Assembly (NCBI GenBank): GCA_937998645.1
Contig: CALLCZ010000037.1
Coordinates: forward strand, 19,287 to 83,286
Length of the DNA: 64,000 nt
Direction: 5' to 3'
Source of the DNA: an uncultured Gammaproteobacteria bacterium
Lineage (GTDB): Bacteria > Pseudomonadota > Gammaproteobacteria > SZUA-229
Shown: positions 28,617 through 64,000 of the stretch, piece after piece
Position numbering within the stretch: the stretch's first letter is position 1
Layout: every line of letters starts with the position of its first letter
Translations under genes and position numbers: made by a program
The notes under the pieces: model-generated
The model's database searches: none
Told to the model about the DNA's origin: nothing
What the model saw: the letters and a program-made list of their open reading frames with translations, nothing else

Positions 28617-28628
28617 GGTCGCTCCTCC

Positions 28629-32671: not shown

Positions 32672-33037
32672 ATGCAAAAAGAAATATACAATACTTTCAA
32701 TGAATTAGGGCAGACCGCCTACGAGGCAGCCATGAAGATGGGTGAGGTTAACCTGCGCGCCGGCGAGAAATTGCTCGAGCAGCAGTTCGCTTTGACCGGC
32801 GCATTGCTGGAAACCGGCAGCAAGAACCTGGAATTGATGAGCCAGGCCAGGACGCCGCAGGAAATGCTAAACGGCCAGGCCAAACTCATTCAGGACTGTG
32901 GTCAGCAGTGGCTGAACAGCTGCCGCGGTACCGTCGAAATCGTAACTGAGGCACGTAATGCTGCTGGCGAGCTCGTTGAAGAGAACGTCAAGGCTGCCAA
33001 CGAAAAAGTCAAACAGGCTGCCAGCAAGGCCGCTTAA
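32672..33037 (+). CDS. phaP: phasin (PHA granule-associated protein)
   Basis: 121-aa Ala/Glu/Lys-rich helical protein immediately downstream of phaR with PhaR boxes in its promoter. Confidence 0.8.
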   Translation: MQKEIYNTFNELGQTAYEAAMKMGEVNLRAGEKLLEQQFALTGALLETGSKNLELMSQARTPQEMLNGQAKLIQDCGQQWLNSCRGTVEIVTEARNAAGELVEENVKAANEKVKQAASKAA

Positions 33038-37784: not shown

Positions 37785-38159
37785 ATGAATAATAATAATA
37801 AGCGAAGCAGTATCCGCAAACCAGTTGATCTCGATGTCGATGTATACCGCTTCGACGAACATCTGGGGCGTACCCGGACCAGAGACATCAGCCTCGATGG
37901 CGCCTTCATCAAAAGTTGCTCAACAGAGCTTTGTTCGAATGATATGCTGGAACTGCATATTCATTTGCACGATGATGAAAGAGACCCCCTGCGTTTGAAG
38001 GCCACGGTAGTCAGATCATCTGATACAGGCGTTGGTGTTCAGTTCGATTATGGTGATATGGAATACAGACGGCTGCTGAACATCATCTCCACGTATGCAG
38101 CTGATGGTAACAAGCTTAAGATACCTGGTTTCTGGTATGTGAATAGCTCAGTCAACTAA
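37785..38159 (+). CDS. PilZ-domain c-di-GMP-binding protein (paralog 1)
   Basis: RSSIRKPV (RxxxR) and DISLDGAF (DxSxxG). Confidence 0.8.
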   Translation: MNNNNKRSSIRKPVDLDVDVYRFDEHLGRTRTRDISLDGAFIKSCSTELCSNDMLELHIHLHDDERDPLRLKATVVRSSDTGVGVQFDYGDMEYRRLLNIISTYAADGNKLKIPGFWYVNSSVN

Positions 38160-40242: not shown

Positions 40243-40622
40243 CTTTTTACCTCATGTTACCTTCTATTGTTAATCAAAATATAAGACTATACTAATATAA
40301 TATGGTTCAAAGCTTATAATTGTTAATTTTTTGTAACATGATTGTTGGGCCTAAAGTAAGGTCATATATAACAATATGATAGGGACGTTATTTCGGTTCG
40401 AGAATGATTCTCATCATGGGCATTATCTGCCTCTGATAGCAATCCTGGAATGCCTGGTTATCAGAATGACCCGGGATGTCAACCAGCTCATATACTCACG
40501 CGTTAACATAATAAAGCCTCTGCAGACATTGGTTCCAATGAATGTGATGAGTGGATTAGCGCAAGACACTGGGTCTGCATATCGGCGGGGAATCCACAAG
40601 ACAATGGTTAAAGGTGCAGGTG

Positions 40623-40994
40623 ATGAGTATCGACAAGCGAATCAGCTTCAGAAAACAGCTTAACCTCTACGTAGACATATACAGTTTCGATAAATACCTT
40701 GGGCTCCACCAGACACGGGACATGAACCTTGATGGTGCCTTCATCGATAAGTGCGCCAGAAAGCTTTATCCAGGTGATTTGCTAGAACTGCATTTTCATG
40801 TCCAGGATGGCGAACTAAACCCTCTGCGTCTGAGGGCCACAGTTATCCGATCATCAGATGAGGGCGTCGGTGTTGCTTTCGATTATGATGTCCAGGAATA
40901 CAGACAGTTGCTGAATACAATCTCTACATACGCAAGTGATGGCCATATACGCAGGGTACCCGGCTTCTGGTATCTTGATAGTTCGGTGAACTAG
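40623..40994 (+). CDS. PilZ-domain protein (paralog 2; ~60% identical to 37785-38159, same C-terminal FWY.DSSVN)
   Basis: RISFRKQL and DMNLDGAF. AAGGTG RBS 6 nt before the ATG at 40623. Confidence 0.8.
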   Translation: MSIDKRISFRKQLNLYVDIYSFDKYLGLHQTRDMNLDGAFIDKCARKLYPGDLLELHFHVQDGELNPLRLRATVIRSSDEGVGVAFDYDVQEYRQLLNTISTYASDGHIRRVPGFWYLDSSVN

Positions 40995-48924: not shown

Positions 48925-50220
48925 TCAGTAGGTGGTGAAATCGTCGTAGCGGCGAGTACTGAACTTCTCTCCGAAAAGCACATAAACTTCGTCAACGGTG
49001 CGCGGCTCACAAGTCCTGGGGTGGAAGATGCTCTGGTTACTGCTTGCCGCCTCGGGAAACAGTTCCACGGCATGTTTGTCGGGACTCTGTTCCAGCGATC
49101 GTAAAAAAGTGATGGCTGCGTCGGTGCCGAGGAAGTGGGTCAGGTAGAGATCGGTCTGTGAGGGTTCACGGTCGAACGACTCAACCAGTTTTCGTTGACT
49201 TTCAAGCACCGTTTCCGCGGCCATCATAGCCGATATTCGGGGATTCTTGCGCAGTGCAAGCAGGTGCTCGTACGTCTCTTTGTCGCGCAGGAAGGGCCGC
49301 CTGTTACCAGTCCTCTGGTTCACGTAGTATTCGATCTTCGCGGCGTAGTCGGCGACAAGGCCATACTTGACACCGTGCGTCTTGAGGGTATTCAGCCAGG
49401 TGTCGTGGGTAAACTGGTACATGCCGGTCGCCGACGAGGTCGCCGACTCACTCTCGGGTTCGAAATTGCTTTCGGTGGCAGCCAGCTTCATCAGGTACGA
49501 GAAGTCCACGCCGGTACGCACACTGCTTAGACGGATGGCAGCTACGACACCATGATCAATTCCATACCTGGCAGCATCACTGCGGGCAAGGTTCGCATAG
49601 ATCTCCATGGTTGAAGCAAGCTCGGCATCCTGTAGCTGTTTGCCGCTATCCGGCAGATACAATGCGCGGAACTCTGCGATGGCCTGCCGGGTTTGAGCCC
49701 CTTTAAAACCATCTGCCTCACCCACGTCAAAACCAAGTGTCAGCAGGTTTTCCTGTTGCTCCTTCACCAGCGGGTCAAAGCCATAATAACGTTTCTTGCT
49801 TTCTGGCTGCGGCATCACCAGGGACGGCCCCCACTGGCGCTGACTCGCTGTCCTGGCTACAGAGGTCTTCGCTTTGCCCGAACGTGATGCCCGCTTCCTT
49901 TCGATAGCGGACTGCTGCTTGTCGTGCTCGATCTGCCCGGTCTCCAGCACGCCAGTCGCAGAGACCTCAAGCGGGTCGTTCTTTTTCACATTGCTCTGCG
50001 CGTCGTGGAAAACGCCGATGAACAAAAGGGATACGACAGTCAGAACGCTGACTGCGGCTACTGTTGCGCGGCTCCACGGGCCTGCCGAGCCTGCTTTTGT
50101 CAGTGATGACCTGAGGGCCTGGACCTCGTGTTGATAACGGTCACGCTCAGCTTCTGTTTCTGCAAGTCGCAGATTCAGCAGCTCAAAATCCAGCTTGATT
50201 TGTTCTATTTGGTCTTGCAT
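48925..50220 (-). CDS. membrane-anchored lytic transglycosylase-like protein with peptidoglycan-binding domain and N-terminal coiled coil
   Basis: PG-binding LLTLGFDVGEADGFKGAQTRQAIAEF; SLT-like ATESNFEPESESATSSATGMYQF. Confidence 0.7.
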   Translation of the reverse strand: MQDQIEQIKLDFELLNLRLAETEAERDRYQHEVQALRSSLTKAGSAGPWSRATVAAVSVLTVVSLLFIGVFHDAQSNVKKNDPLEVSATGVLETGQIEHDKQQSAIERKRASRSGKAKTSVARTASQRQWGPSLVMPQPESKKRYYGFDPLVKEQQENLLTLGFDVGEADGFKGAQTRQAIAEFRALYLPDSGKQLQDAELASTMEIYANLARSDAARYGIDHGVVAAIRLSSVRTGVDFSYLMKLAATESNFEPESESATSSATGMYQFTHDTWLNTLKTHGVKYGLVADYAAKIEYYVNQRTGNRRPFLRDKETYEHLLALRKNPRISAMMAAETVLESQRKLVESFDREPSQTDLYLTHFLGTDAAITFLRSLEQSPDKHAVELFPEAASSNQSIFHPRTCEPRTVDEVYVLFGEKFSTRRYDDFTTY

Positions 50221-50665
50221 AACGTCAAATTATTGCTCAATTCAAACAACGTCCATCCCTGATGGCGCTGTCATTTGCCGAACCCTTCGGGGTCATCGAC
50301 TGATTTGATTACTTAGCAGCCACTACAACGTGTGGCTTATATAAATATCATATGCAAATAATGTACTAACTTTTTACCGATTGAATAAATACAATAAGAT
50401 ATCTATTACTTTTAAATTAATTATTGAAGTAATACTGTAAGAAATTCCGTCAGGTTTATTGATTATTTTACAGTTCCGGGTAACCGATGATTGCTCGCAC
50501 GGCAGGGAATGTACGCAACAAGGCCTTAATTCCTTGAATGAAAGCAGATTAGAGGCAAAAAGGCGGGTTTGGCCAGATCGAAAAGGCTGCAGAGATTGAC
50601 TCTCGCAGAGGGCGCAAGGAAAGATGAATAGAAGATATTATCTTTTACAAAAAACACATCACAGC

Positions 50666-50708
50666 TCTGCGTTTTCCGCGCCTCAGCGAGAAGCCAGGAT
50701 GTTAAAAC
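50666..50708 (+). repeat. REP-like 42-bp element, copy 2
   Basis: ctctgcgttttccgcgcctcagcgagaagccaggatgttaaaa. Confidence 0.7.
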
Positions 50709-50752
50709 TCCAACGCAGGCAAATTTCACGGTGAGGCGAAAATCGACAACAA

Positions 50753-51110
50753 CTGTCAGATTTCGCATGATCTAAACCGGACGGGTTTAGTGGTTTGTAG
50801 TATTTTCTCTCGCAAAGGCGCCAAGATCGCCAAGAACTTCAATGTTTTTATGTGTTTAGCCCCAACGCTTTTGCGTACTTTGTGCCTCGGCGAGATCTAA
50901 TGATTGTTTCTCTCGCAGAGGCGCAGAGTCCGCAGAGAATTTCAATGTTTTGTTCTTAACCCAAACACCTTTGCGTGCTTTGTGCCTCGACGAGGTCTAA
51001 TGATTGTTTCTCTCGCAGAGGCGCAGAGTCCGCAGAGAATTTCAATGTTTTGTTCTTACCCCAAACACCTTTGCGTGCTTTGCGCCTTTGCGAGAGTAAA
51101 TATCAATGGA
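50753..51110. repeat. 358-bp repeat block containing ~3 tandem copies of a 100-bp unit (50803-51100); left copy of a direct-repeat pair
   Basis: The unit tgattgtttctctcgcagaggcgcagagtccgcagagaatttcaatgttttgttcttaacccaaacacctttgcgtgctttgtgcctcgacgaggtctaa recurs at exactly 100-bp phase (50901, 51001), with a diverged copy at 50803. The whole block is ~97% identical to 53257-53515. Confidence 0.85.
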
Positions 51111-51133
51111 TTTTTCTGTTCCCGGAATGCGGT

Positions 51134-51520
51134 TTAGATGTTTTCGATTACCGCTTTGAGTTTTTGCTGAACCTGTTGTGCAACAGGTGCCAGCTCAGCA
51201 TTTTCCACGGCACTCATTGAGGCAATGGGATCCACCGCAAAGACTTCTGTTTGTCCTGCTTTATTTTCCCTGACCACCACATTACAGGGAAGCATGGCTC
51301 CAATGTGTTCTTCTGCAAGCAGGGCCTGATGCGCAAACTGGGGATTACAGGCTCCCAGAATAATATACCTCGGGAAATCTACGTCAATTTTATTCTTTAG
51401 AGTAGCTTTAACGTCAATTTCGGTAAGAACCCCGAAACCCTCCTTTTTAAGCTCTTCAGTGGTTTTAACAATGGCGTCTTCGTAGTTTAAATCCGTAAGG
51501 GTGCTGAAATAGTAGGACAT
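51134..51520 (-). CDS. DUF302-domain protein
   Basis: MSYYFSTLTDLNYEDAIVKTTEELKKEGFGVLTEIDVKATLKNK... matches the DUF302 pattern. Start chosen at the Met with an AGGA RBS; the track ORF extends further upstream. Confidence 0.7.
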   Translation of the reverse strand: MSYYFSTLTDLNYEDAIVKTTEELKKEGFGVLTEIDVKATLKNKIDVDFPRYIILGACNPQFAHQALLAEEHIGAMLPCNVVVRENKAGQTEVFAVDPIASMSAVENAELAPVAQQVQQKLKAVIENI

Positions 51521-51681
51521 AAGATGTTCCTGGGTGACCAAAAAAAAGTTAACAGGAATCATGCATGAATTATTTGAAATCGTAAAGCTATATGCGTGAG
51601 AACATGGACATAAATAAACAGGGACAGTGAGCAATTGTTTATAATCCTGGAGAATAACACTCTCTAAACCTTATTACTGAT

Positions 51682-52197
51682 ATGCCAAGAGCAATCATCA
51701 TATGTGGAACACCTGGTTCAGGTAAGACTACACATGCAAAGCAATTAGCCGCTGACAGGAAAGCGTCCATACTGGACATCGACACAGTAACCGAACGACT
51801 GGTAAAGACAGGACTGGCAGAATCCGGACACAGTCCGGATGACCGGGATTCTGAGTATTTCAAGCGAACTTATCGCGAGCCCATCTACCAGGCGCTTTTT
51901 GATATAGCACGTGAAAATCTCCCTTATCATGATGTTGTGATAACCGGGCCTTTTACCAGTGAAATCCAGGATCCTGGCTGGCCTGCGAAGCTGGCCAGTG
52001 AATTATGCAGCCCGGTAGAAGTGCACTATGTACAATGCCCACCCGAAATTCGCAGACAACGGCTTGCCGATCGTGGTGATGCGCGCGATCGGGCAAAACT
52101 TGAGGACTGGGATCGATATATAGAATACTATGGCGAAGAACATCCGCCGGTGTTTGAGCATGTGCTTGTTGATGGTAGCGGTGAAGGAAAGAGTTGA
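51682..52197 (+). CDS. P-loop NTPase / small-molecule-kinase-like ATPase (AAA_33-like)
   Basis: Walker A IICGTPGSGKTT and DVVITGPF Walker-B-like motif; 171 aa. Confidence 0.7.
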   Translation: MPRAIIICGTPGSGKTTHAKQLAADRKASILDIDTVTERLVKTGLAESGHSPDDRDSEYFKRTYREPIYQALFDIARENLPYHDVVITGPFTSEIQDPGWPAKLASELCSPVEVHYVQCPPEIRRQRLADRGDARDRAKLEDWDRYIEYYGEEHPPVFEHVLVDGSGEGKS

Positions 52198-52364
52198 AAG
52201 GAACAGGGCCTTTCACATGATCTGATGCAGGTTCGCGGCTGAAGCCTGTGCTCAGCGAAGTCGAAGGGCCGCTTGTGATATAAAAATAAACAGATTTATT
52301 TCATTGAAACCCGGTTGATTGGTCTTTCTATAAACTGACCCCGGTTTTCTCAAGAGGTTGAACC

Positions 52365-53075
52365 ATGAAAATAGCTGCAGAACAAATCGATGTAAATTGT
52401 CCTGAACCTGAAATATACAATCGTCTCCTGTCGCTGGATGGTAAACACATCCTGGAGTTAGGTTGTGGCAGTGCTGAAATTACCCGCAACATAGCGACAA
52501 GCGGTGTTGATCGCAAGATTACTGCCCTGGAAGTTGACGAGATTGCTCATGAAAAAAACCTGCAGATTACGGATCTTCCAAATGTAACATTTGGTCTTTC
52601 CGGTGCACAGGATATTCCGCTGGAAGATGAATCGGTCGACGTGGTCTTCATGTTTAAATCACTGCACCATGTACCACTTGAACTGATGGAACCGTCAATG
52701 CACGAAATCAGGCGTGTATTGAAACCGGGCGGACTGCTCTATATATCCGAGCCAATATTTGCCGGTGAATTTAATGAAATCCTGCGTTTATTCCATGACG
52801 AGCAAAAAGTTCGTGAAGCAGCATTTAACACTATAAAAAAAGCAGTCGATGAGGGCCTGTTTAGCCTGGCGGAAGAAACATTTTTTAACTCGCCAATGAA
52901 ATTTGAAGATTTTGTCGAGTTCGAAAACAACACAATCAAAGCCACACATAGCAATCACTCACTGGATGAGGAACTATATAAACTGGTCAAGCAACGTTTT
53001 GAGCAGCACATCGGTGATGATGGTGCACATTTCCTGATGCCTATCCGTGTCGATTTACTGCAGAAAGATAAATAG
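52365..53075 (+). CDS. class I SAM-dependent methyltransferase
   Basis: ILELGCGSAE motif I and DVVFMF motif. Confidence 0.8.
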   Translation: MKIAAEQIDVNCPEPEIYNRLLSLDGKHILELGCGSAEITRNIATSGVDRKITALEVDEIAHEKNLQITDLPNVTFGLSGAQDIPLEDESVDVVFMFKSLHHVPLELMEPSMHEIRRVLKPGGLLYISEPIFAGEFNEILRLFHDEQKVREAAFNTIKKAVDEGLFSLAEETFFNSPMKFEDFVEFENNTIKATHSNHSLDEELYKLVKQRFEQHIGDDGAHFLMPIRVDLLQKDK

Positions 53076-53160
53076 CAATGACAGGCGGCAGGCCCCGCTT
53101 CATATTCGAACTGAATCATATTGAATTAATTAAAGGGGGCTGATCCCGAATAATTATTAA

Positions 53161-53206
53161 CATCCTGATTTCTCGCAGAGGCGCTGAGAACGCAGAGCTG
53201 TGATGT
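53161..53206 (-). repeat. REP-like 42-bp element, copy 3 (inverted orientation)
   Basis: Reverse complement acatcacagctctgcgttctcagcgcctctgcgagaaatcaggatg matches copy 2. Confidence 0.7.
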
Positions 53207-53256
53207 CTTTGTTACAAATAATAATATGTAGTGGTCCAGACCTGATCTGACAGTTT

Positions 53257-53515
53257 CTGTCAGATTTCGCATGATCTAAACCGGACGGGTTTAGTGGTTT
53301 GTAGTATATTCTCTCGCAAAGGCGCCAAGATCGCCAAGAACTTCATTGTTTTTTTGTGTTTAGCCCTAACGCTTTTGCGTACTTTGTGCCCCGGCGAGAT
53401 CTAATGATTATTTCTCTCGCAGAGGCGCAGAGTCCGCAGAGAATTTCAATGTTTTGTTCTTACCCCAAACACCTTTGCGTGCTTTGCGCCTTGGCGAGAG
53501 TAAATATCGATGGAT
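53257..53515. repeat. 259-bp right copy of the direct-repeat block (two 100-bp units)
   Basis: Collinear with 50753-51110 minus one tandem unit. Confidence 0.85.
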
Positions 53516-53869
53516 TCTTCTATATCGCTAATTCTGGCTTTACTGACAAAAGATCATAGTCCGGGTTTGAGTTAATGCGACACTGACTGTCAGATTGAAT
53601 CCTGACTATTACAAATAATAATATCTTATTTTAATCTTTCTTTGCGGCCTCTGCGCCTCTGCGAGAGTATATTTCTTTAGCCTTTTCGATCTAGACAACC
53701 CCGGCTGTAATGGTAAAAAACATAGTCGGCGTTTGATTTAATATGACGCGCGTTGTCAGTTTGAATTCTGACTATTACAAATTAGTATTATCTGCTTTCA
53801 TCTGTGGACATTCTTAATGCCCATTCAGGATTATCTCGGTGAGTTAAAGGAGATGATCCCTTTATCGGT

Positions 53870-54175
53870 TTATTTGTCGGGTTGTCTGAAATCTTCGCCT
53901 GGTTCAGACCAGTCATCAGGCGTGGTATCAGTTACACCGGTGCCCAGATCGTCCTGCTCTGTAATATCGAGGGCGCCTGTCCAGCTTTCTGGCGCCTCAC
54001 TCAACTCAATATCGAGATCACGCCATTCATCCAGGCTGAACTCTTCAATATCACTATCAAAATGCTGTATATCTACAGTATTTTCTTCTTCGTTAACGGC
54101 TGTAACGTAAAAACGCTGGCCTTTATCAAGATGGGCATACCATTGGTCAACTTGCGGATCGAGTTCATTTGGCAT
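53870..54175 (-). CDS. highly acidic hypothetical protein (101 aa), co-transcribed downstream of PPK2
   Basis: GGAGG RBS 9 nt before the ATG at 54175; 26-bp gap after the PPK2 stop. Confidence 0.55.
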   Translation of the reverse strand: MPNELDPQVDQWYAHLDKGQRFYVTAVNEEENTVDIQHFDSDIEEFSLDEWRDLDIELSEAPESWTGALDITEQDDLGTGVTDTTPDDWSEPGEDFRQPDK

Positions 54176-54201
54176 TGTTTTATTCCTCCGCTTACAGCTC
54201 T

Positions 54202-55113
54202 TCAGCCGGTGAACTTGCCGCTTCGCACCCGCTCGACTTCCATCATTTCGAGTTCGCGAGAACCCGATACGATGATGTTTTCATCGAGAGCGAAGTCCAG
54301 TGACAGGTCATGACGCTCACAGGGTACCGCGTTCAGGATCGCCTTGATGGCATTCAGCCTGGCCAGGTGCTTGTCGTTGGAACGTACCACCGTCCATGGT
54401 GCGTCGATCGTATGGGTGCGTTTCAGCATTTCATATTTCACGTTGGTGAAATCATCCCAGCGGTCCTGCGCCTGCAGGTCTACCTCGCTGAGTTTCCACT
54501 GCCTCAGCGGGTCTGTTTTGCGACGCTCGAAACGGCGTGCCTGCTCCTCTTTGGTGACGCTGAAATAGAGCTTCACCAGGATGGTGTCCTGTCGGACCAG
54601 GTCGCGCTCGAAACCGACGACGCCGCGCATGAAATCGTAGTATTCCTTTTCGCTGCAGTAATTAAACACGCGCTCGACCATGGCACGGTTGTACCAGCTG
54701 CGGTCGAACAGCACGGTCTCGCCGGCGCGCGGAAACTGTGACACGTACTTCTGGTAGTACCACTGGGTTTTCTGTTCTTCGGTCGGCTTGCCGAGTGCCA
54801 CTACGCGGTAGTGTTTCTCGTTCATGTAGCGGGTGACCCGGCGAATGGTACCGCCTTTGCCCGCTGCATCGCGGCCCTCGAACAGGATGATCATGCGCCG
54901 CTGTTTCTCTTCGAGGTACTGCTGGAGCTTCAACAACTCGGCCTGGAACGGCTTCAGTTCCTCTTCGCGCCGGTAGCGTCTGATAGCCTTTTTGTTTTGT
55001 GACCTGAGGGCGGCATTCTGGTTTGCGAGCTCTTCGTGTTCCTCTACATAATCCTTAAGACTCAGCGTTTTACCGTCCACCTCGATCTGTTCGGGGTTCA
55101 TTTCTTGGGCCAC
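54202..55113 (-). CDS. polyphosphate kinase 2 (PPK2) family polyP:nucleotide phosphotransferase
   Basis: ILFEGRDAAGKGGTI Walker A and PPK2 lid region. Confidence 0.9.
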   Translation of the reverse strand: MAQEMNPEQIEVDGKTLSLKDYVEEHEELANQNAALRSQNKKAIRRYRREEELKPFQAELLKLQQYLEEKQRRMIILFEGRDAAGKGGTIRRVTRYMNEKHYRVVALGKPTEEQKTQWYYQKYVSQFPRAGETVLFDRSWYNRAMVERVFNYCSEKEYYDFMRGVVGFERDLVRQDTILVKLYFSVTKEEQARRFERRKTDPLRQWKLSEVDLQAQDRWDDFTNVKYEMLKRTHTIDAPWTVVRSNDKHLARLNAIKAILNAVPCERHDLSLDFALDENIIVSGSRELEMMEVERVRSGKFTG

Positions 55114-55446
55114 AGTTATCTACTCCTGAAATCAGTTCAGTTAATGGTTCAATGTCACCGGGCAAGGCATAAGCCTTGTCGACAGACCGGTAGCAAAGTA
55201 CAAACTTAGCGCATATCAGGCCCTTAAGTATTGATCCTGCTCAAAAAAAGGCGGTAACTCCGCGATGAGAGGAGCTTTGGCGGTAATCAATACAGGCTAA
55301 AAAAAAGTAATCATGGACCGGCATAGATCATCCTGAAACAGACCACGCGCGAGGGAATGACACCGAAATTGCTGCACCCTGGAATCCGGAAGATCAAGGA
55401 TGCATGGATGGCGCAGGTATCACAGCCTCAATATACACATATTTAC

Positions 55447-55490
55447 TCTGCGTTCTCTGCGCCTCGGCGAGAAAAAAACAGGAGATGATT
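55447..55490 (+). repeat. REP-like 42-bp element, copy 4
   Basis: ctctgcgttctctgcgcctcggcgagaaaaaaacaggagatgatt. Confidence 0.65.
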
Positions 55491-55524
55491 CTTCCATGTT
55501 AGCCATAGAATCTCCCGTCTGTTG

Positions 55525-56538
55525 CTATACCTTCTTCAGAAGTTCACGCCATCCCCTGGTTTCGTTTTCGAGTGTAAACAGCGGTTGTCTGGCAATACAG
55601 GCTTTTTCCAGCTTTTTGTAACAGGCAGTATCAGATTCCGCTTTCAATAACAGTGTTGACAGGGCCTGCTCATTCTCCGCTGCATAATAACCGGCATAGT
55701 CGTCACCAAGAAGTCCTATTGAGCCTTCTATATCGGAAGCAATCACCGGTACACCAGCGACAATGGCTTCCGAGATCACATTGGCGCCGCCTTCCATGCG
55801 GGACGGCAATACCAGCAGACGGGTGCGTCGGTAAACCTGCCTGATTTTATGGTGCGCTATTTCGCCATGCCATTGATAGCGCGTGTTTGAATTCATTTCA
55901 GCCTGTGCCTGTTTTGCATATTCCGGCGTATGCGCCTTGCCATAGTGGTGTACCTGTATGCGACTGCTGGCAGGAAGATTACGTACTGCCATGGCAGGAC
56001 GCATCGGGTCTTTTTCATCGCGCAAATGGCCCATGACCGAGACATGAAAATAACGCCTGTAGGGTTCGCGTTTGCCAATCGGCTGGGCTGACTGGTAAAT
56101 TACAGACAGCTTGTGACGTTCATTTTGCGGTAGCGTATTCCCGATCAGATCATGCAGGCCGACCAGGTAGTCTGCCAGCCTGATGGATTGCAGGGTGGTT
56201 TCAGGATGACTGTGAATAAAGCGATAGGCGTCTGTTCCGGTAATAGCCACGATAAGCGGGCGTTCGTGAAAAGCATCGGAGAATTGCTGTATCGATTCCG
56301 CACTGCGCCAGGCGTGCAGGGCGATCATCAGATCCGCATTCTGGCCGGTATATGTCGTAGCAATCGCAACCCGGTGCCCCAGTGATCTTAATATATTCGC
56401 CCATCGAGTGGCCGTTGCCCGGTTACCGGCTCTTGACTGGGGTGGTGCTGGTGTAATCAGTATAATGCGCATCGTCGGGTAGGTAATATCAGGGTTATTG
56501 TTAGTGTTACTGTAGCCAGGCTTGAAAGGCGCAAACAT
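55525..56538 (-). CDS. GT4-like glycosyltransferase, candidate selenosugar synthase (SenB-like)
   Basis: GT-B fold C-terminal EGGANVISEAIVAGVPVIASDIEGSIGLL motif. Divergent from the EgtB-like/SelD pair. Confidence 0.7.
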   Translation of the reverse strand: MFAPFKPGYSNTNNNPDITYPTMRIILITPAPPQSRAGNRATATRWANILRSLGHRVAIATTYTGQNADLMIALHAWRSAESIQQFSDAFHERPLIVAITGTDAYRFIHSHPETTLQSIRLADYLVGLHDLIGNTLPQNERHKLSVIYQSAQPIGKREPYRRYFHVSVMGHLRDEKDPMRPAMAVRNLPASSRIQVHHYGKAHTPEYAKQAQAEMNSNTRYQWHGEIAHHKIRQVYRRTRLLVLPSRMEGGANVISEAIVAGVPVIASDIEGSIGLLGDDYAGYYAAENEQALSTLLLKAESDTACYKKLEKACIARQPLFTLENETRGWRELLKKV

Positions 56539-56655
56539 AACACCGCCATTGCGGGTGAAGATGTTGCAGTCTTATACTATGACCCATACAAATCAAGATG
56601 GTCTTATATACTGATTTGCCTGTCCTGACTGAATGCCCGCATCTGACAAAAACGA

Positions 56656-57957
56656 ATGAGCATGCACAAACTTAATCCAGATACCATTGCAATTCAACTT
56701 GAGGATGCGCATCAAAGAACGATGGCATTGATTGATGGTCTCTCCCGGGCGCAATTGACGGGACCATTGTTAGCAACCGTCAATCCCTTACTCTGGGAAA
56801 TCGGCCATGCCGCTTACTTTTACGAATACTGGGTACTGCGCCACCATCTGAACAGGTCAGCGATTCGCGAAGATGCTGACCGACTGTATGACTCGATCAG
56901 CATTGCGCATGATGAACGTTGGGACTTGCCCCTGCCTGAGCTGCAACAGACCCTGGCTTATATCCAGGCCGTCGAGGACAGGGTTAAAGACTGCCTGGCC
57001 ACTGGCGATGACGCACAAAGAGACTACCTCGCCCAATACGCCGTGTTCCATCATGATATGCATAATGAAGCGTACACCTATACGCGCCAGACACTGAATT
57101 ACCCCGAACCCGGTATCGGCAAAGCCGGGCACAGTATTCTGGATGCCGGCGACCTGAGAGGGGATGCCAGTATTCCTGGCGGCACGTTTATGCTCGGCGC
57201 CACACCTCAGGATGGCTTTGTATTTGATAATGAAAAATGGGCACATAGCATCGAGGTCGAACCGTTTAGCATCGCAAGGGCGGCCGTCAGTAATGGCGAA
57301 TATTTGAAATTTGTGCAGGCTGATGCATACAGCAAACAGGAATACTGGGACGATGAAGGCTGGCAATGGCTCAGGCAGGCGGGTCTTGAACACCCCGTTT
57401 ACTGGCGCCAGGATGCAGATGGCTGGAAACTCAGGCAATTCGATCAGTGGCGATCATTGCCAATGAATGCGGCCCTGATACATGTCAGCTGGCATGAAGC
57501 CCGCGCCTACTGCCGCTGGGCCGGCAGGCGACTGCCCACCGAGGCTGAATGGGAAGTTGCAGCAGCCGCTGAACCTTCGGCCGATGGACAATCGCTGGCT
57601 GCCGGCAAGCGTCAGTTTCCATGGGGAGATGAAGCACCACGCCCGGACCAGGCAAACCTCGATGGTTTTGCACTGGGCACCATTGATGTTGGTGCACATG
57701 CCGCAGGTGACAGTGCTTTTGGCTGCCGTCAAATGATCGGTAATGTCTGGGAATGGACGCAGGATACCTTTGCGCCTTATCCCGGTTTTGACCCGGATAT
57801 GTACCAGGATTATTCTCAGCCGTTATTCGGTATCACAAAAGTATTGCGTGGTGGTGCATGGACCACGCGTGCGCGTATGATTCGTAATACCTGGCGAACT
57901 TACTACGGCCCCGATCGCAATGATGTCTTTGCCGGTTTTCGCACCTGCGCCCTTTGA
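56656..57957 (+). CDS. EgtB-like sulfoxide/selenoxide synthase (DinB_2 + FGE-sulfatase domains), candidate selenoneine synthase SenA
   Basis: DinB-like HxxxH region (AVFHHDMHNEAYTY) and C-terminal FGE-type VLRGGAWTT...FRT. Confidence 0.75.
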   Translation: MSMHKLNPDTIAIQLEDAHQRTMALIDGLSRAQLTGPLLATVNPLLWEIGHAAYFYEYWVLRHHLNRSAIREDADRLYDSISIAHDERWDLPLPELQQTLAYIQAVEDRVKDCLATGDDAQRDYLAQYAVFHHDMHNEAYTYTRQTLNYPEPGIGKAGHSILDAGDLRGDASIPGGTFMLGATPQDGFVFDNEKWAHSIEVEPFSIARAAVSNGEYLKFVQADAYSKQEYWDDEGWQWLRQAGLEHPVYWRQDADGWKLRQFDQWRSLPMNAALIHVSWHEARAYCRWAGRRLPTEAEWEVAAAAEPSADGQSLAAGKRQFPWGDEAPRPDQANLDGFALGTIDVGAHAAGDSAFGCRQMIGNVWEWTQDTFAPYPGFDPDMYQDYSQPLFGITKVLRGGAWTTRARMIRNTWRTYYGPDRNDVFAGFRTCAL

Positions 57958-57976
57958 AGACGCCCCGATTTTAATT

Positions 57977-60238
57977 ATGCAAAAAAACAATGCCCCTGTC
58001 GTAAAAGACCTCGTACTCATTGGTGGCGGTCACGCGCATGTTTCGGTTTTGAAAAGATTCGCTATGAAGCCGCTAGCTGGCCTGCGCATTACCCTGATAA
58101 CGCGTGATATTCATACGCCTTATTCGGGTATGTTGCCCGGTTACGTAGCCGGACATTATGACTACGATGACTGTCATATCGATCTTGGGCCGCTGGCTCA
58201 ATTTGCCGGTGCGCGTCTTTATCATGCCGAGGTCAGCGGAATAGACCTCGATAAAAAGCGGGTTTATGCACCGGGACGTCCTGCCATTAACTATGACATT
58301 GTTTCGATAAACACTGGATCCCGGCCCAACAGCATCGATATACCCGGTGTTGATGAATACGCCCTTGCCGCGAAACCCATCGATGTTTTTCTGCGCAAAT
58401 GGCAGCAGCTGATTGAGCGCGTGCAAGACAGCGAGGGTCCGTTTCGCATCGTCGTCGTCGGCGGAGGTGCTGGCGGTGTCGAACTGGCCTTGTCCACACA
58501 GCTTCGCTTACAGGATAGCCTGCGCGCAGCAGGACAGGATCCCGGACGACTGCACTATACGCTGATCACGGCCAGCGATTACATCATGCATATGCATAAC
58601 GCCGGGGTCAGAAAACGTTTCGAGCGTATCTTTGCCAATCGCAATATTGGGATTAAAACCGGCGTGAGGGTGATTGAAGTCACAGAGAACAGCTTACGTG
58701 TGGCTGATGGCAGCTCAATCGAGAGTGACGCGGTTATCTGGGTGACCACGGCATCTTCACCAGGCTGGCCTGCACAATCGGGGCTTGCAGTAGATGAGGA
58801 TGGCTTTATCCAGGTCGACAGGCATTTACAGTCGTTATCACATGAACATGTTTTTGCGGTGGGCGATGCGGCCGCGTTAAGCGACCCGCGTCCCAAGTCA
58901 GGGGTGTTCGCCGTGCGCCAGGGACCGGTGCTCGCGCATAACCTGAGAGCAGCTGCGACGGCCAAAGCCTTGCGCCCTTATCGCGCCCAGAAGAACTTCC
59001 TCGGCCTGATCAGCACCGGTGATAAGTATGCCGTCGCATCGCGCGGCAACTGGTCGCATGAGTCAGCCTGGTTGTGGACCATGAAAGACTGGATCGACAG
59101 AAAATTCATGCGCAACTTTAATGAATTACCCGACATGGAACAGGAAGATAACCCGGCCCTGGCAGCAGGCATTGCCGATGCGGACGCAATCAGGGAATTA
59201 TCCACCCTGGCCATGCGCTGTGGTGGATGTGGCGCCAAGGTAGGCGCTACGGTGTTATCCCGTGTCATGCAACGCCTGCCTGATACGCAACGCGATGATG
59301 TGCTGATCGGCCGTGACGCACCCGATGACTGTGCGATGTTGAGCGTTCCAGACGGCAAGCTCATGGTTCAGAGTGTCGATTATTTTCGTGCCTTCATTGA
59401 AGACACCTATACCTTCGGTGCTATTGCAGCCAATCATGCCCTGGGCGATATCTTTGCTATGGGGGCAGAGCCACAATCCGTGCTGGCGATTGCAACCGTC
59501 CCCTACGGACGCGAACGCGTTGTTGAAGAGACATTATACGAACTGCTAGCCGGGGCTTTGTATATGCTTGAGCCAACCGGCGCAGTGCTTGCAGGCGGCC
59601 ACTCCAGTGAAGGTGCAGAACTGGCCTTTGGATTAAACGTAAATGGCCTGATCGATCCGGACAAGGTCTGGCGTAAACAGGGACTTCAGCCCGGTGACGC
59701 CATTGTGTTGACCAAGCCCGTCGGCACCGGCACATTGTTTGCCGCACAGATGCGCACCAAAGCCAAAGGCCGCTGGATAGATGCCGCAATCCAGTCGATG
59801 CTGGTATCCAGCCAGCAGGCCGCAGTGTGTTTGCAACGCCACGGTGCGACGGCATGTACCGACCTTACCGGTTTCGGTATCGTCGGCCACCTGGTTGAAA
59901 TGACCAGGGCATCTGAGGTTGATGCGGTTTTAAACATGGAAGCGATACCCTTGCTGGATGGCGCTCTGGAAACCGTCAGGGCCGGTATCCTGTCATCGCT
60001 GCAACCTCAAAATCTGCGCTTGCGTCGTGCCATCCACGATGTTGAACAGGCTTCGAAACATCCGGCCTTCCCATTGTTATTCGACCCGCAAACCGCCGGA
60101 GGCCTGCTGGCGGGTGTACCTGATCAACACGCTGGCGCCTGCATCGATGAATTACATGCAATGGGATATTCCGATGCCGTCATCATCGGCCAGATAGAGC
60201 CATTATCGAATCAGCAGGCGCCGATTAGAATTAATTAA
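57977..60238 (+). CDS. selD: fusion protein: pyridine-nucleotide-disulfide oxidoreductase (N) :: selenide,water dikinase SelD (C); candidate SenC
   Basis: N-terminal LIGGGHAHV and VVVGGGAGGVE dinucleotide folds. C-terminal RCGGCGAKV aligns with the E. coli SHGAGCGCK motif, with the Cys17 equivalent kept and the Cys19 equivalent replaced by Ala. Also DDCAMLSVPDGKLMVQSVDYFRAFIEDTYTFGAIAANHALGDIFAMGAEP. Alternative start 57920 overlaps the senA-like gene. Confidence 0.85.
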   Translation: MQKNNAPVVKDLVLIGGGHAHVSVLKRFAMKPLAGLRITLITRDIHTPYSGMLPGYVAGHYDYDDCHIDLGPLAQFAGARLYHAEVSGIDLDKKRVYAPGRPAINYDIVSINTGSRPNSIDIPGVDEYALAAKPIDVFLRKWQQLIERVQDSEGPFRIVVVGGGAGGVELALSTQLRLQDSLRAAGQDPGRLHYTLITASDYIMHMHNAGVRKRFERIFANRNIGIKTGVRVIEVTENSLRVADGSSIESDAVIWVTTASSPGWPAQSGLAVDEDGFIQVDRHLQSLSHEHVFAVGDAAALSDPRPKSGVFAVRQGPVLAHNLRAAATAKALRPYRAQKNFLGLISTGDKYAVASRGNWSHESAWLWTMKDWIDRKFMRNFNELPDMEQEDNPALAAGIADADAIRELSTLAMRCGGCGAKVGATVLSRVMQRLPDTQRDDVLIGRDAPDDCAMLSVPDGKLMVQSVDYFRAFIEDTYTFGAIAANHALGDIFAMGAEPQSVLAIATVPYGRERVVEETLYELLAGALYMLEPTGAVLAGGHSSEGAELAFGLNVNGLIDPDKVWRKQGLQPGDAIVLTKPVGTGTLFAAQMRTKAKGRWIDAAIQSMLVSSQQAAVCLQRHGATACTDLTGFGIVGHLVEMTRASEVDAVLNMEAIPLLDGALETVRAGILSSLQPQNLRLRRAIHDVEQASKHPAFPLLFDPQTAGGLLAGVPDQHAGACIDELHAMGYSDAVIIGQIEPLSNQQAPIRIN

Positions 60239-60451
60239 TGGACGGGGAATGCGCGTGACCCCACTTCAAGGGTTTTTCAGGCCCGATCAAAACAGTTTTA
60301 ATGAACGAATAGACATACCAGTAGAAACTAGCCCTGTCAGCAAGACCTTTTTCTGATGAATCCCCCACTTATAGTGGGTTGGTCAATGCAACAGCAGTGT
60401 GCACAATAACAGCCAGTATTTCTCACCACTCATCGCTGCGGTCCTTTTCAG

Positions 60452-61927
60452 TTGAAATCCAATCCCTTTACAAACAGTTATTTCGGTCTTGGTCGTGGTT
60501 TTTACCAGTCGATCAAACCAACGCCTGTTCAGAATCCTGAACTGATTATTTCTAACCGGGTACTGAGCGATGAACTCGGGCTTGCGGACACGGCTTTGAG
60601 TTCATCAGCGGGCGCAGCAGTATTTGCCGGCAACCATGTACCCGAGGGTGCACAGCCGCTGGCGATGGCTTATTCCGGGCATCAGTTCGGGCATTTCAAC
60701 CCTGACCTGGGCGATGGCCGCGCGCTGCTGCTTGGCCAGATACATAACCCGGACGGACTCTCTTTCGATATTCATATGAAGGGAACGGGGCAGACGGCTT
60801 TTTCACGCAACGGTGATGGCCGTGCTGCGCTGGGGCCGGTTCTGCGCGAATACCTGGTGAGTGAAGCCATGGCCAGGCTGGGGGTGCCAACAACGCGCGC
60901 ACTGGCGGCAGTAACGACGGGGGAGGAGGTTGCAAGGGAGCAGCTGTTGCCGGGGGGAATCATCACGCGTGTTGCTGCCAGTTTTGTTCGAATCGGAACG
61001 TTCGAGTATTTTCTCGCCAGGGGGGACACGGCGGCCCTTACCCGACTGGCTGACTATGTGATCGAAAATCAATATCCGCACCTCAAGCAGGTCGAAAACC
61101 CGTATCCAGCATTGCTGGATGCCGTCATCGAGGGGCAGGCGTCATTGATTGCACACTGGATGCAGCTTGGCTTCATTCATGGCGTGATGAACACAGACAA
61201 CATGTCGATTGCATGCGAAACCATCGACTATGGCCCCTGCGCATTCATGGATCATTATGCACATGACAGGGTGTATAGCTCGATTGACCATCATGGGCGT
61301 TATGCCTATAACAATCAGCCAAATATCGGCTTGTGGAACCTCTCCCGCTTTGCCGAGTGCCTGTTGCATTTGATCGATGCGGATACCGGTACTGCTGTTG
61401 AAATGGCCAGGGATCGCCTTGAAGGCTTTATCAGCTCCTACCAGGGCCACTGGTTAACGGGGATGCGCGCCAAGCTCGGGCTCAAGTCCGGACTTGAGCA
61501 GGACAGGGCGCTGGTTGAAGAGTTGTTTGCCATCATGGCCAGCAGCAATGCTGATTTCACACTGACGTTTTTTCGACTGTCAATGCTCGACATGGATGCA
61601 TCAAAAGACGATGCCATTCTGGCTATGTTCGATCATGCGGCATCGTTAACCCAATGGCTCGATAAATGGCGCCAGCGGTTACGCCAGGAAGACAGTGACA
61701 GTGACGAAAGAAAAGCCAGGATGCGTGCAGTCAACCCTGTTTATATACCCAGGAACCATTTGATTGAAGCGGCCATACGGGCAGCAGAAGACCATGGCGA
61801 TTTTTCCGTGTTTCATGCATTACATGAAGTCCTGCAACAGCCCTATGATTTGCAGCCCGGCAAGGAAGCCTGGATGCAACCACCGCAACCGGATGAGGTC
61901 GTGCATAAAACATTTTGCGGGACGTAA
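60452..61927 (+). CDS. selO: protein adenylyltransferase SelO (YdiU/UPF0061)
   Basis: GHQFGHFNPDLGDGRALLLGQ and MNTDNMSI motifs. C-terminal ...KTFCGT (Cys form). TTG start per the track. Confidence 0.9.
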   Translation: MKSNPFTNSYFGLGRGFYQSIKPTPVQNPELIISNRVLSDELGLADTALSSSAGAAVFAGNHVPEGAQPLAMAYSGHQFGHFNPDLGDGRALLLGQIHNPDGLSFDIHMKGTGQTAFSRNGDGRAALGPVLREYLVSEAMARLGVPTTRALAAVTTGEEVAREQLLPGGIITRVAASFVRIGTFEYFLARGDTAALTRLADYVIENQYPHLKQVENPYPALLDAVIEGQASLIAHWMQLGFIHGVMNTDNMSIACETIDYGPCAFMDHYAHDRVYSSIDHHGRYAYNNQPNIGLWNLSRFAECLLHLIDADTGTAVEMARDRLEGFISSYQGHWLTGMRAKLGLKSGLEQDRALVEELFAIMASSNADFTLTFFRLSMLDMDASKDDAILAMFDHAASLTQWLDKWRQRLRQEDSDSDERKARMRAVNPVYIPRNHLIEAAIRAAEDHGDFSVFHALHEVLQQPYDLQPGKEAWMQPPQPDEVVHKTFCGT

Positions 61928-62075
61928 AACGAGGGTAGAGGGACGAGTGGCAAAGGGCGATAAAGAGCTCAGTATTTAGCTTTTAGTCGAGTGCAATGTG
62001 ATCCCGGGCTGATAGATAATAAGCATCTATGTCAGCCTGAAAGCTTTCCGGCTTCGTTAGGCTGCCCCCGGACCA

Positions 62076-62246
62076 TTACTTCCCGTTTGTTTCAGAAGAC
62101 AGTTCATCCTGTGCCTGCTTTGCTCTGGATCTCTGCGTATCAGCCTGATTATAGGAATCATCCTTCGGTTCGGGCGCACTGGAACAGCCTGTGATTGACA
62201 GGGTCGTTAGCAGTAGAACAATCGTAGCATTGACTGCAAGCTTCAT
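62076..62246 (-). CDS. small lipoprotein (56 aa, lipobox ITGC)
   Basis: MKLAVNATIVLLLTTLSITGCSSAPEPK... AAGGAG RBS 8 nt upstream. Found manually, below the track cutoff; antisense to the weak track ORF 61991-62194. Confidence 0.45.
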   Translation of the reverse strand: MKLAVNATIVLLLTTLSITGCSSAPEPKDDSYNQADTQRSRAKQAQDELSSETNGK

Positions 62247-62341
62247 TTGAAACTCCTTTAATTAAATTAACCGGGACACCGGGCTGTAATTTTCAAGTAA
62301 TCAACATTACCCAAGGGATATCCGCAGCCAGTATACTCATT

Positions 62342-63670
62342 TCAATTGCTTACGCAATTTAAAGTGATATCCGCCCTGAAGCCACCGAGTTTGTCGGATC
62401 GCTGAAAGCTGATGCTGCCGTCGTAGTCATTGACCATATCTGCAACAATTGCAAGTCCAAAACCATGCCCGGCTGTTTGTTCATCCAGACGAACACCTCT
62501 GTGAGACAATTCGCTGAACTTATCAGGGTTTGCGCCTGGCCCATCGTCTTCAATGCAGATTTGAAAATTGTTATCAATCTTGCTGACGCTGAGTATGATG
62601 TTGTGGTTAGCCCATTTGTAAGCATTATCAAGCAGGTTGCCAAGTAATTCGAGCATGTCCTGACGGTCAACGGGACAGTTAATATCTGCCGGGATATCTG
62701 TGGCCAGGTGCACCGTTTTATCGGGATACATCATCTCGAGTGTTTTGATCAGCGCTGGAAGATCTTCAGTAAATGAAAACAGGGCACCGCCATGACTGTG
62801 ACCTGCAAGACGGGCGCGCTTTAATATACGATCGGTTAGTTGATATATCTCATCAGTCTGTTTCAATATCGTTTTTTTACTCGCTTCAGCTGAATCATTA
62901 TTATGAGTTTGCTGCTGGATCACCGTTAATGGTTTCTTGATCGCATGGGCCAGGTCGCTCAAGGCATCACGTGAGCGACGCAAGCGATCCCCCGTGACTG
63001 CCAGAAGATGATTCACTTCGATGATCAGGGGGCGAAGTTCAGCGGGTGAGTCGGTATTGAGTCTCTCCAGCTTCCCCTGCTCGAGTTTTTTTAACTCAGT
63101 ATGAATGCTGGTTACAGGCATCAGACTTCTGCGTAATATGATCACCTGAAAAATGACCAGCAGCAATAACATGCCCAGGGCCAGTGCGGAAAAGCCATAC
63201 TGAAACTGAATGATATTTTTATTGATTGGGTTGAGGTCTTCTGCAATTGATACCACAACCGGGTTTCCCTGTTTGATAAAACCCCTGGAGATGACCAGCA
63301 GCGATTGTTGTTCCGGCCCTGGTTGTTTAGTAAGTAGCTGCTCATCTGTATTAACCACGACAGGTGCTAGCCGGTAGTCCCATAAAGACCTTGAGCTGAT
63401 ATATTGTTCATCGCTGATAACAACATAATAGTGACCGGAAAACGGCTGGTTATAGACAAGGTCGATACGCTGGTCGGCTAGTGTCAATTTTCCATCTTTC
63501 TCGAATTCTATCGTGCTGAGCAATGTTTCTGCATCATGCAACAGGCGTGAGGCAATGTAGTCTTCCGCCAGAGTCTTGATGCTAATACTCACCAGCAACC
63601 ACAGCGCAGAAAAAGCAATAATCAGGCTGAATAATAAACCGGTACTGAGCCTGGCCTGTATAGACTGCAT
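62342..63670 (-). CDS. sensor histidine kinase (periplasmic-sensing, QseC/PhoQ-like architecture)
   Basis: Two TM segments flanking a periplasmic domain, HAMP, H-box LSDLAHAIKKPL, HATPase. Start overlaps the RR stop. Confidence 0.85.
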   Translation of the reverse strand: MQSIQARLSTGLLFSLIIAFSALWLLVSISIKTLAEDYIASRLLHDAETLLSTIEFEKDGKLTLADQRIDLVYNQPFSGHYYVVISDEQYISSRSLWDYRLAPVVVNTDEQLLTKQPGPEQQSLLVISRGFIKQGNPVVVSIAEDLNPINKNIIQFQYGFSALALGMLLLLVIFQVIILRRSLMPVTSIHTELKKLEQGKLERLNTDSPAELRPLIIEVNHLLAVTGDRLRRSRDALSDLAHAIKKPLTVIQQQTHNNDSAEASKKTILKQTDEIYQLTDRILKRARLAGHSHGGALFSFTEDLPALIKTLEMMYPDKTVHLATDIPADINCPVDRQDMLELLGNLLDNAYKWANHNIILSVSKIDNNFQICIEDDGPGANPDKFSELSHRGVRLDEQTAGHGFGLAIVADMVNDYDGSISFQRSDKLGGFRADITLNCVSN

Positions 63671-64000
63671 TAATCGTCATTCCTGAATACATAGCCCTGG
63701 CCGCGGCGTGTTTCAATACATTTTTTTCCCAGCAGAAGGCGTAAGCGCCTGACATATACCTCGATAACATTACTGTCCTTGTCGGAATCGAAGTCATAGA
63801 CATGTTCAGTCAGTAGTGACTTGGACAATACCCGGCCGCGGTTTAGCAAAAAATAACGCAGCAGGCGAAATTCAGTACCCGTTAATGCATGTGTCTGACC
63901 GTCTTCCAGTGTCACTGATTGCTGTTCTTCATCAAGCGATAATCCAGCAGCAGTCAGTTTTCCACCGGGCTGTTGCCGGCTACGGTGCAGTAGCGCAGTT
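63671..64000 (-). CDS. OmpR-family response regulator, C-terminal part (receiver domain lies beyond the window end)
   Basis: Winged-helix LTGTEFRLLRYFLLNRGRVLSKSLLTEHVYDFDSDKDSNVIEVYVRRLR. The frame stays open to the window edge. Confidence 0.8.

Follow-up and report, generated by a model that had tools for sequence, protein, structure and literature searches.

A probable selenoneine biosynthetic cluster with a fused oxidoreductase-SelD protein in an uncultured gammaproteobacterium

Introduction

Which selenium compound would be made by a bacterium that carries a SenB-like glycosyltransferase, an EgtB-like iron enzyme and a SelD protein fused to an oxidoreductase side by side, with no gene for hercynine synthase (egtD) among them? 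Such a trio lies at positions 55525-60238 of the window, by which we mean the whole 64,000-nucleotide stretch of contig CALLCZ010000037.1 from an uncultured gammaproteobacterium. A preliminary description had named it a candidate selenoneine cluster. From profile matches, active-site residues, phylogeny and the gene neighbourhoods of relatives, we conclude that 55525-60238 is very probably a selenoneine biosynthetic (sen) cluster of gammaproteobacterial type. The locus is a genuine yet ordinary case of the known bacterial selenoneine pathway, and current NCBI models would label it correctly.

Results

The three genes belong to the sen families

Pfam and NCBIfam profile scans were run on 47 of the 51 window open reading frames (ORFs) of at least 90 aa, and the four largest (1-2208, 9008-11227, 12650-15043 and 16609-21549) were read by eye as a helicase, KatG, phosphoenolpyruvate synthase and pyruvate:ferredoxin oxidoreductase. 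The homologue comparison covered 80 genome loci plus the close relatives P0001, P0014 and Thiohalophilus thiocyanatoxydans (L109), L001 being the window with a further 4 kb. The glycosyltransferase scored 409.7 bits on the NCBIfam equivalog TIGR04348 (cut-off 300). The EgtB-like protein scored 508 bits on the SenA model NF041186 (cut-off 420) and 324 bits, below the cut-off of 360, on the EgtB model TIGR03440. The third protein gave 489.9 bits against a cut-off of 310 on TIGR03169 ('Nterm_to_SelD', residues 30-400) and 291 bits against 125 on TIGR00476 (residues 432-737); the look-alike TIGR04369 ('fusion_not_SelD') reached 463 bits, below its cut-off of 700, and Pfam reported Pyr_redox_2, AIRS and AIRS_C.

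The three ORFs were found where the preliminary description had placed them, their adjacency was confirmed and their identities were upheld by these curated models. The roles it had proposed (selenophosphate made by SelD, a selenosugar by SenB and the C-Se bond on hercynine by SenA) fit the published sen pathway, as does the arrangement of the genes (bioRxiv 10.1101/2022.04.13.486033). The senB gene lies on the minus strand, divergent from the senA-senC pair on the plus strand, which is unlike the characterised Variovorax cluster. The trio recurs in conserved order in about two dozen proteobacterial loci, and the same three-gene layout is also present in the cultured Thiohalophilus thiocyanatoxydans, whose SenA is 80% identical to that of the window. 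The features of the locus are as follows.

55525-56538, minus strand: senB ORF, 337 aa
55525-56472, minus strand: senB gene, predicted selenosugar synthase (GT-B Se-glycosyltransferase; TIGR04348), most likely starting at Met23 of the ORF (MRIILITPAPP)
56473-56655, no strand: intergenic region separating the divergent senB and senA-senC, where both promoters presumably lie
56656-57957, plus strand: senA, predicted non-haem-iron selenoxide synthase (NHISS) of the SenA family, 'long' form, 433 aa (NF041186)
57898-57900, plus strand: codon of SenA Thr415, the sole departure from the published SenA composite motif
57920-60238, plus strand: senC ORF, 772 aa
57977-60238, plus strand: senC gene, predicted bifunctional type-2 NADH dehydrogenase (NDH-2)-like flavoprotein::selenophosphate synthetase, 753 aa, most likely from Met20 of the ORF
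58007-59119, plus strand: SenC N-terminal FAD/NAD(P)H oxidoreductase domain, ORF residues 30-400 (TIGR03169)
59213-60238, plus strand: SenC C-terminal SelD (selenide, water dikinase) domain (TIGR00476)
59219-59239, plus strand: SenC glycine-rich catalytic loop C434-G-G-C437-G-A-K440, by alignment to E. coli SelD

The true start of senB is most likely Met23 of its ORF, judging from homologue N-termini and from independent gene calls of 315-317 aa. That of senC is most likely Met20, the homologues beginning at the equivalent Met with calls of 753 aa; with its start at 57977, senC would lie 19 nt downstream of senA without overlap. We only infer that promoters for both directions lie in 56473-56655. 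A consensus promoter scan of this region gave no signal above chance, promoter-like and terminator-like sites around the locus were no commoner than in shuffled sequence, and an Rfam scan of window positions 50000-64000 at E up to 0.1 returned no RNA family.

The best solved structures for the glycosyltransferase were those of Variovorax paradoxus SenB (VpSenB; 8K5U, 8JJN and 8FBX). In VpSenB, the catalytic Lys158 forms a catalytic pair with Arg155, phosphate-binding residues have been assigned, and His235 makes a main-chain contact (PMC11237966). VpSenB Gly19/Asn20/Thr23, Gln131, Arg155 and Lys158 were kept in the window protein as Gly38/Asn39/Thr42, Gln149, Arg173 and Lys176 (ORF numbering), and His58 was likewise kept in the alignment to the PDB structures; Thr214 was replaced by Ile and His235 by Asn. 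Since it passes the SenB equivalog model and retains Arg155/Lys158, the glycosyltransferase does not fall outside SenB. The Arg/Lys pair is shared with the sen cluster of V. paradoxus DSM 30034 (Kayrouz et al. 2022), a cluster with which the window locus agrees in its three enzyme families and in its inferred chemistry.

SenC is an oxidoreductase-SelD fusion

The SelD domain aligned to E. coli SelD (3U0O) at E = 7e-45. In its loop, RCGGCGAK against GAGCGCK of E. coli, Cys437 corresponds to Cys17, Ala439 to Cys19 and Lys440 to Lys20, so that a catalytic Cys (not Sec) is kept and Ala stands at the second Cys position, as had been described; an extra cysteine, Cys434, forms a CxxC pair with the catalytic Cys437. 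In our reading of the same alignment, acidic and Asn residues were also in register (ddcA/ddaA, svDyf/ttDff, NhalgD/NaisD and tDlTGfG/tDvTGfG), and these conserved residues we take to be ATP/metal ligands. The oxidoreductase domain carried two Rossmann GxGxxG motifs and no conserved cysteine, Cys85 being present in only 50% of 22 fused homologues. Its nearest solved structures were type-2 NADH dehydrogenases (9PXK YjlD and 4NWZ) and FSP1.

With both TIGR03169 and TIGR00476 above their cut-offs, the earlier claim of an N-terminal FAD/NAD(P) oxidoreductase fused to a true SelD stands; what had been overlooked is that this architecture is long known and is no peculiarity of the window locus. Both halves occur in 23 of the sampled sen loci, and in every one of these they were adjacent and fused in frame; nearly all of the 23 are proteobacterial and one belongs to Gemmatimonadota. 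The loop AMRCGGCG[A/S]K was seen in every fused SenC ORF examined, and Cys434 and Cys437 were invariant in a 22-sequence alignment.

Fusions of an NADH dehydrogenase-like domain to SelD have been known since 2008; this is the commonest SelD fusion, with the added domain always N-terminal and SelD always of the Cys and not the Sec form (PMC2432076, PMC4561486). The reductase was proposed to reduce a selenium compound to the substrate of SelD (Zhang et al. 2008; PMC2432076, PMC4561486). The window SenC resembles these COG1252-SelD fusions (TIGR03169) in its N-terminal reductase and Cys-form SelD. The surveys, however, linked such proteins to the use of selenocysteine or selenouridine (Zhang et al. 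2008, Mariotti et al. 2015), whereas in sen loci it holds the SenC position of a small-molecule pathway. In the literature on NDH-like::SelD fusions we did not find the SenC-position context with an invariant CGGCG[A/S]K loop described, and the occurrence of the fusion with its CxxC loop in sen loci may not have been pointed out there before.

For V. paradoxus SenC, the reported active-site residues are Ala56, Asp57, Asp98, His243 and Leu316 (PMC11929427), and numbers running from 56 to 316 make it appear to be a stand-alone SelD, whereas the window SenC has an N-terminal NDH-2-like flavoprotein domain of ~410 residues. The V. paradoxus enzyme was assayed with sodium selenide under anaerobic conditions. 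It is possible, although we lean somewhat against it, that the fused NDH-2-like domain is a dedicated selenide-making enzyme for SelD, which would reduce selenite-derived or elemental selenium with NAD(P)H and hand it over through Cys434-Gly-Gly-Cys437.

Other arrangements were seen around SelD in related loci. In sen clusters of Rubrobacteraceae (L066 3934-4992, L070 466-1524, L073 5274-6335, L081 7805-8932; minus strand), the SelD beside senB is stand-alone, and an in-frame TGA occupies precisely its catalytic position (KAG*AAK / KAG*GSK); this SelD probably contains selenocysteine, unlike the fused proteobacterial one, which is of the Cys form. In L005, the closest genome relative, a ModA-like periplasmic oxyanion-binding protein is encoded directly 3' of senC (13844-14977, plus strand). 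Its match was weak (TIGR01256, 49.9 bits, below cut-off) and the window has no equivalent; it may be a selenate- or selenite-binding component. In T. thiocyanatoxydans (L109), senC is followed by a gene for a metallo-beta-lactamase-fold/rhodanese fusion resembling persulfide dioxygenase (13857-15212, plus strand), which could be relevant to sulfur or selenium trafficking.

SenA groups with the selenoneine synthases

The composite motif of window SenA was N43 E48 H51 / H85 R88 / H132 H136 / Y383 Y386 / T415 Y416 Y417 / R421. The published motifs are xNEH--HRHxHYYN(F/Y)(F/Y)R for SenA and xNEH--HRHxHYMQAYR for the ovoselenol synthase OvsA (Kayrouz 2024, PMC11030361); our extraction covered 14 positions, with the leading 'x' and the two gap positions outside. 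Alignment to PDB structures revealed that window SenA, like V. paradoxus SenA, keeps the iron triad and the catalytic Tyr, has the selenosugar-binding Asn43/Glu48/Arg88, and carries the pair that distinguishes SenA from EgtB, His85/Tyr417, in place of the thiol-binding Arg87/Asp416 of EgtB. Tyr416 provides an aromatic residue at the cation-pi position toward the trimethylammonium group, a position which is Ala in OvoA as well as in OvsA, the two subfamilies that accept histidine.

With EgtB-I of M. thermoresistibile (4X8B; 245 bits, 35.8% identity), the window protein has in common the DinB plus FGE-like fold family, the iron triad, the catalytic Tyr, a hercynine-type pocket and a long loop. 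In contrast, the Ser/Asp and Arg87/Asp416 thiol-binding residues of EgtB-I are Asn/Glu and His/Tyr in window SenA, which departs from the EgtB-I motif xSDH--RRHQHYYNWDR in having N/E, H and T/Y/Y for S/D, R and N/W/D.

A neighbour-joining tree with 200 bootstraps was built from 50%-identity representatives, close homologues and the NHISS genes of the 80 genome loci. Window SenA fell into a gammaproteobacterial SenA clade in 197 of 200 replicates, and the next-out sequences with a sampled locus were alpha- and gammaproteobacterial SenAs with canonical YNFF/YNYF motifs. The OvsA pair formed a clade of its own (200/200), which was sister to the window clade in only 10 of 200 replicates. By its SenA-type motif, its TIGR03440 score below cut-off and its position in the SenA clade, the EgtB-like protein stands apart from ergothioneine EgtB. 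Our literature search for later NHISS work found nothing on the clade of window SenA.

On NF041186 the crystallised V. paradoxus SenA scored 511 bits, window SenA 508 and OvsA 423.8 against the cut-off of 420; OvsA just passes, so this model alone cannot separate SenA from OvsA. The OvsA score was obtained with the crystallised protein (residues 27-468), and the NCBIfam search gave no OvsA-specific model. Automated annotation will probably name ovoselenol synthases 'selenoneine synthase SenA'.

The threonine variant and the likeness to OvsA

Several observations weigh against a selenoneine function. Thirteen of the 14 extracted positions fit the strict published SenA motif and the remaining one, Thr for Asn, does not. 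This Thr415 lies at the hercynine N-methyl contact; it aligns to Asn395 of V. paradoxus SenA, which contacts the hercynine trimethylammonium group, and the strict motif would file window SenA as 'Other'. In pairwise comparison the protein was closer to OvsA (41.6% identity, 304-310 bits) than to V. paradoxus SenA (38.3%, 225 bits). A tblastn search with four EgtD proteins against the six frames of the window and L001 gave a best E of 0.16. The nearest relatives with an examinable senA-senC junction were also without an in-cluster egtD, namely P0001 (94% SenA identity), P0014 (86%), L005 (83%) and T. thiocyanatoxydans (80%). The main residual doubt about selenoneine function follows from the hercynine supply, which is unproven.

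The higher pairwise score to OvsA is largely due to a loop of ~50 residues (window residues 308-361) that is common to window SenA, OvsA and EgtB-I and that V. paradoxus SenA has lost. Window SenA is thus of the long form, unlike V. paradoxus SenA, from which it also differs in Thr for Asn395 and to which it is 38% identical. As for Thr415, TYY was found in 104 of the 120 closest SenA homologues. Since one well-supported clade contains Thr and Asn in alternation and both forms adjoin egtD, we read Thr as motif drift and not as exclusion from SenA.

The linkage to egtD was seen in nine clade members (L007-L011, L014, L018, L019 and L022), which carry a gene of 321-328 aa between senA and the fused senC. 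This gene scored 393-406 bits on the EgtD model TIGR03438 (cut-off 290.9) in the four tested, and the other five match these at 64-78% identity. Seven of the nine (L007-L011, L014 and L019) have Tyr-Thr-Tyr-Tyr like the window and two have Tyr-Asn-Tyr-Tyr. With a Thr-type SenA beside egtD in seven relatives, hercynine stays the expected substrate, and no stronger evidence for continued hercynine use by the Thr form is at hand than this linkage. The preliminary description, which had rightly taken the EgtB-like protein for a SenA, overlooked its nearness to OvsA and the Asn-to-Thr departure from the motif; it was also right that the window has no egtD, and the in-cluster egtD of close relatives, which is the best evidence on the substrate, had escaped it.

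The Tyr-Thr-Tyr-Tyr variant was also observed in two loci of Candidatus Methylomirabilis / Methylomirabilales (L026 and L028), a distant lineage, in a SenA of 57-59% identity with egtD ~2.1 kb upstream; neither locus gave a match to senB or SelD. These sequences suggest more than one origin of the Asn-to-Thr change.

Hercynine supply

The absence of egtD from the window was borne out by the profile scans as well as by tblastn: the sole methyltransferase among the 47 of 51 profile-scanned ORFs is that at 52365-53075, and the other four ORFs were read by eye. This methyltransferase (236 aa) was considered as an EgtD or OvsM and rejected; it matched generic class-I models only, and neither TIGR03438 nor an ovothiol-type model. 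No counterpart of it was seen among the 80 genome loci; the one place where it turns up again is the syntenic 94%-identical relative. We also rejected a remnant of egtD between senA and senC, where the gap is 19 nt and tblastn gave no match.

In most sen clusters egtD is missing and hercynine is supplied by the ergothioneine pathway; a small subset carries egtD (bioRxiv 10.1101/2022.04.13.486033). In V. paradoxus, egtD lies outside the cluster; in the window's organism, since none was found on the 68-kb contig, hercynine would have to be imported or made by an egtD product encoded in another part of the genome. A metagenome scan with the EgtD of the clade returned no contig from the window's samples, which is uninformative rather than evidence of absence. 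Among the best 120 EgtD homologues, the majority without an organism name, no protein named Thiohalophilus appeared, a result likewise uninformative on absence.

Alternative readings of the locus

Could the iron enzyme be an OvsA that selenylates C5 of free histidine, so that the locus would be an ovoselenol (ovs) cluster and the missing egtD would be explained? Its top solved-structure matches are indeed OvsA 8U41 and 8UX5, at 304-310 bits against 225 for SenA, and OvsA carriers are aquatic gammaproteobacteria, mostly without egtD, which reuse senB/senC (PMC11030361). The ovs cluster of Halomonas utahensis / Marinobacter vinifirmus (Kayrouz et al. 2024) is like the window locus in its gammaproteobacterial hosts, its senB/senC cassette and its long-form NHISS, OvsA being the nearest solved structure by sequence (41.6% identity), and a window in which egtD is not found is what the ovoselenol reading expects. 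However, the OvsA-defining Met401/Gln430/Ala431 are Tyr386/Thr415/Tyr416 in the window, Thr being neither the Asn of SenA nor the Gln of OvsA. Changing these three residues of OvsA to Tyr/Asn/Phe converts it to a hercynine-using, C2-selective SenA (PMC11030361), and this YNF mutant (8UX5) matches window SenA slightly better than wild-type OvsA does. The OvsA clade is separate in the tree, the window was found to hold no OvsM-type N-pi-methyltransferase (52365-53075 has no ovothiol-type model among its NCBIfam hits), and the Thr-type relatives carry an in-cluster egtD, whereas most OvsA organisms are without egtD. On motif, phylogeny, the lack of an OvsM in the window and the egtD linkage of relatives, an ovoselenol identity was rejected, and we give it next to no credence. 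No more credible is a chance set of unrelated neighbours, in which an ergothioneine EgtB and a generic GT4 glycosyltransferase would stand beside a housekeeping SelD that serves selenocysteine or selenouridine. The fused SelD architecture does occur in organisms that use Sec or SeU (PMC4561486), and the window NHISS does match the EgtB model with 324 bits; yet this match is below cut-off, the thiol-binding Arg/Asp pair is replaced, and SenB passes a narrow equivalog model. The conserved order of the trio across about two dozen proteobacterial loci contradicts unrelated neighbours, and no selA, selB or selU was seen in the scanned window ORFs, the four large ORFs having been read by eye only.

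A cluster derived from sen may also have another end product: after the loss of egtD and the change of Asn to Thr, it could halt at the selenosugar, or place selenium onto histidine or partly methylated histidine. All members of at least 80% SenA identity with an examinable junction (the window, P0001, P0014, L005 and Thiohalophilus) lack an in-cluster egtD, Thr415 occupies a substrate-contact position, and many NHISS with divergent motifs are uncharacterised, according to Kayrouz et al. Against this, most described sen clusters are without egtD, their hercynine being drawn from ergothioneine biosynthesis, and window SenA still has the bulky aromatic side chain characteristic of hercynine acceptors. 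A Thr-type SenA moreover stands beside egtD in L007-L011, L014 and L019 and, independently, in the two Methylomirabilis loci, so that Thr is compatible with hercynine. We regard another end product as unlikely, and we find it quite improbable that the Thr415, egtD-less sub-lineage makes a third selenoimidazole from an acceptor other than hercynine.

Proposed pathway

In the selenoneine pathway that we favour, the SelD domain of SenC would turn selenide and ATP into selenophosphate, a reaction shown for the Variovorax homologue. By hypothesis, the NDH-2-like domain would reduce an oxidised selenium species to selenide for SelD with NAD(P)H, and the selenium might be handed over on the invariant Cys434-x-x-Cys437 loop. 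SenB would move N-acetylglucosamine (GlcNAc) from UDP-GlcNAc onto selenophosphate and cleave the Se-P bond via Lys176 to give 1-seleno-GlcNAc, as its conserved residues suggest. SenA, as an Fe(II)/O2 enzyme, would then link the selenosugar to C2 of hercynine, and the selenoxide would eliminate the sugar to yield selenoneine; motif, phylogeny and the egtD linkage in relatives point to hercynine at this step.

Neighbouring genes and other features of the window

A gene for a SelO/YdiU protein adenylyltransferase (60452-61927, plus strand; NF000658, 570 bits) lies 214 bp 3' of senC, in the same orientation. The two genes are also neighbours in the 94%-identical relative (L106 and L107), but not in the 80 genome loci, P0014 or Thiohalophilus, and SelO was not accepted as a cluster member; its place beside senC is probably a coincidence of name without a functional link. 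PPK2 (54202-55113), which is present only in the 94%-identical relative and, displaced, in L005, was likewise rejected as a member.

Elsewhere, positions 15609-25424 (plus strand) hold a gene set for an Rnf-type ion-translocating ferredoxin:NAD+ oxidoreductase. Pfam recognised an RnfB-like Fe-S protein, RnfC, RnfD, an FMN-binding subunit and an Rnf-Nqr membrane subunit, and the set is interrupted by the 1646-aa ORF (16609-21549) that was read by eye as pyruvate:ferredoxin oxidoreductase. A class III polyhydroxyalkanoate (PHA) synthesis cluster at 27549-33037 comprises PhaE (PF09712), a thiolase, an acetoacetyl-CoA-reductase-like short-chain dehydrogenase/reductase, a phasin and an alpha/beta-hydrolase taken to be PhaC. 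Two paralogous ORFs of ~125 aa lie 2.5 kb apart at 37785-38159 and 40614-40994 (both plus strand), the first with a PilZ domain by Pfam; they share long identical stretches (RDISLDGAFIKSC / RDMNLDGAFIDKC and IPGFWYVNSSVN / VPGFWYLDSSVN). A 431-aa ORF at 48925-50220 (minus strand) is conserved in the 94%-identical relative; neither Pfam nor NCBIfam gave a match at E up to 1e-5, and precomputed annotations contain just faint hints of PG_binding/SLT.

Discussion

Knowledge of the selenoneine pathway itself is unchanged by the window locus, which adds an uncultured, Thiohalophilus-related gammaproteobacterial lineage to the known selenoneine producers, with the probability stated above. For the SenA family, it follows that the strict published motif and the NCBIfam SenA model do not coincide: the egtD-linked clade has Thr where the motif has Asn, and OvsA passes the model. 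For SenC, the reductase-SelD fusion with its CxxC loop is present in every sampled sen locus that holds both halves, nearly all of these being proteobacterial, whereas the sole biochemically studied SenC is apparently without the reductase. The question of how SelD is provided with selenide in the cell could readily be tested on these fusions, and a cultured carrier of the same layout exists. If the reductase does make selenide, the pathway could run aerobically without free toxic selenide.

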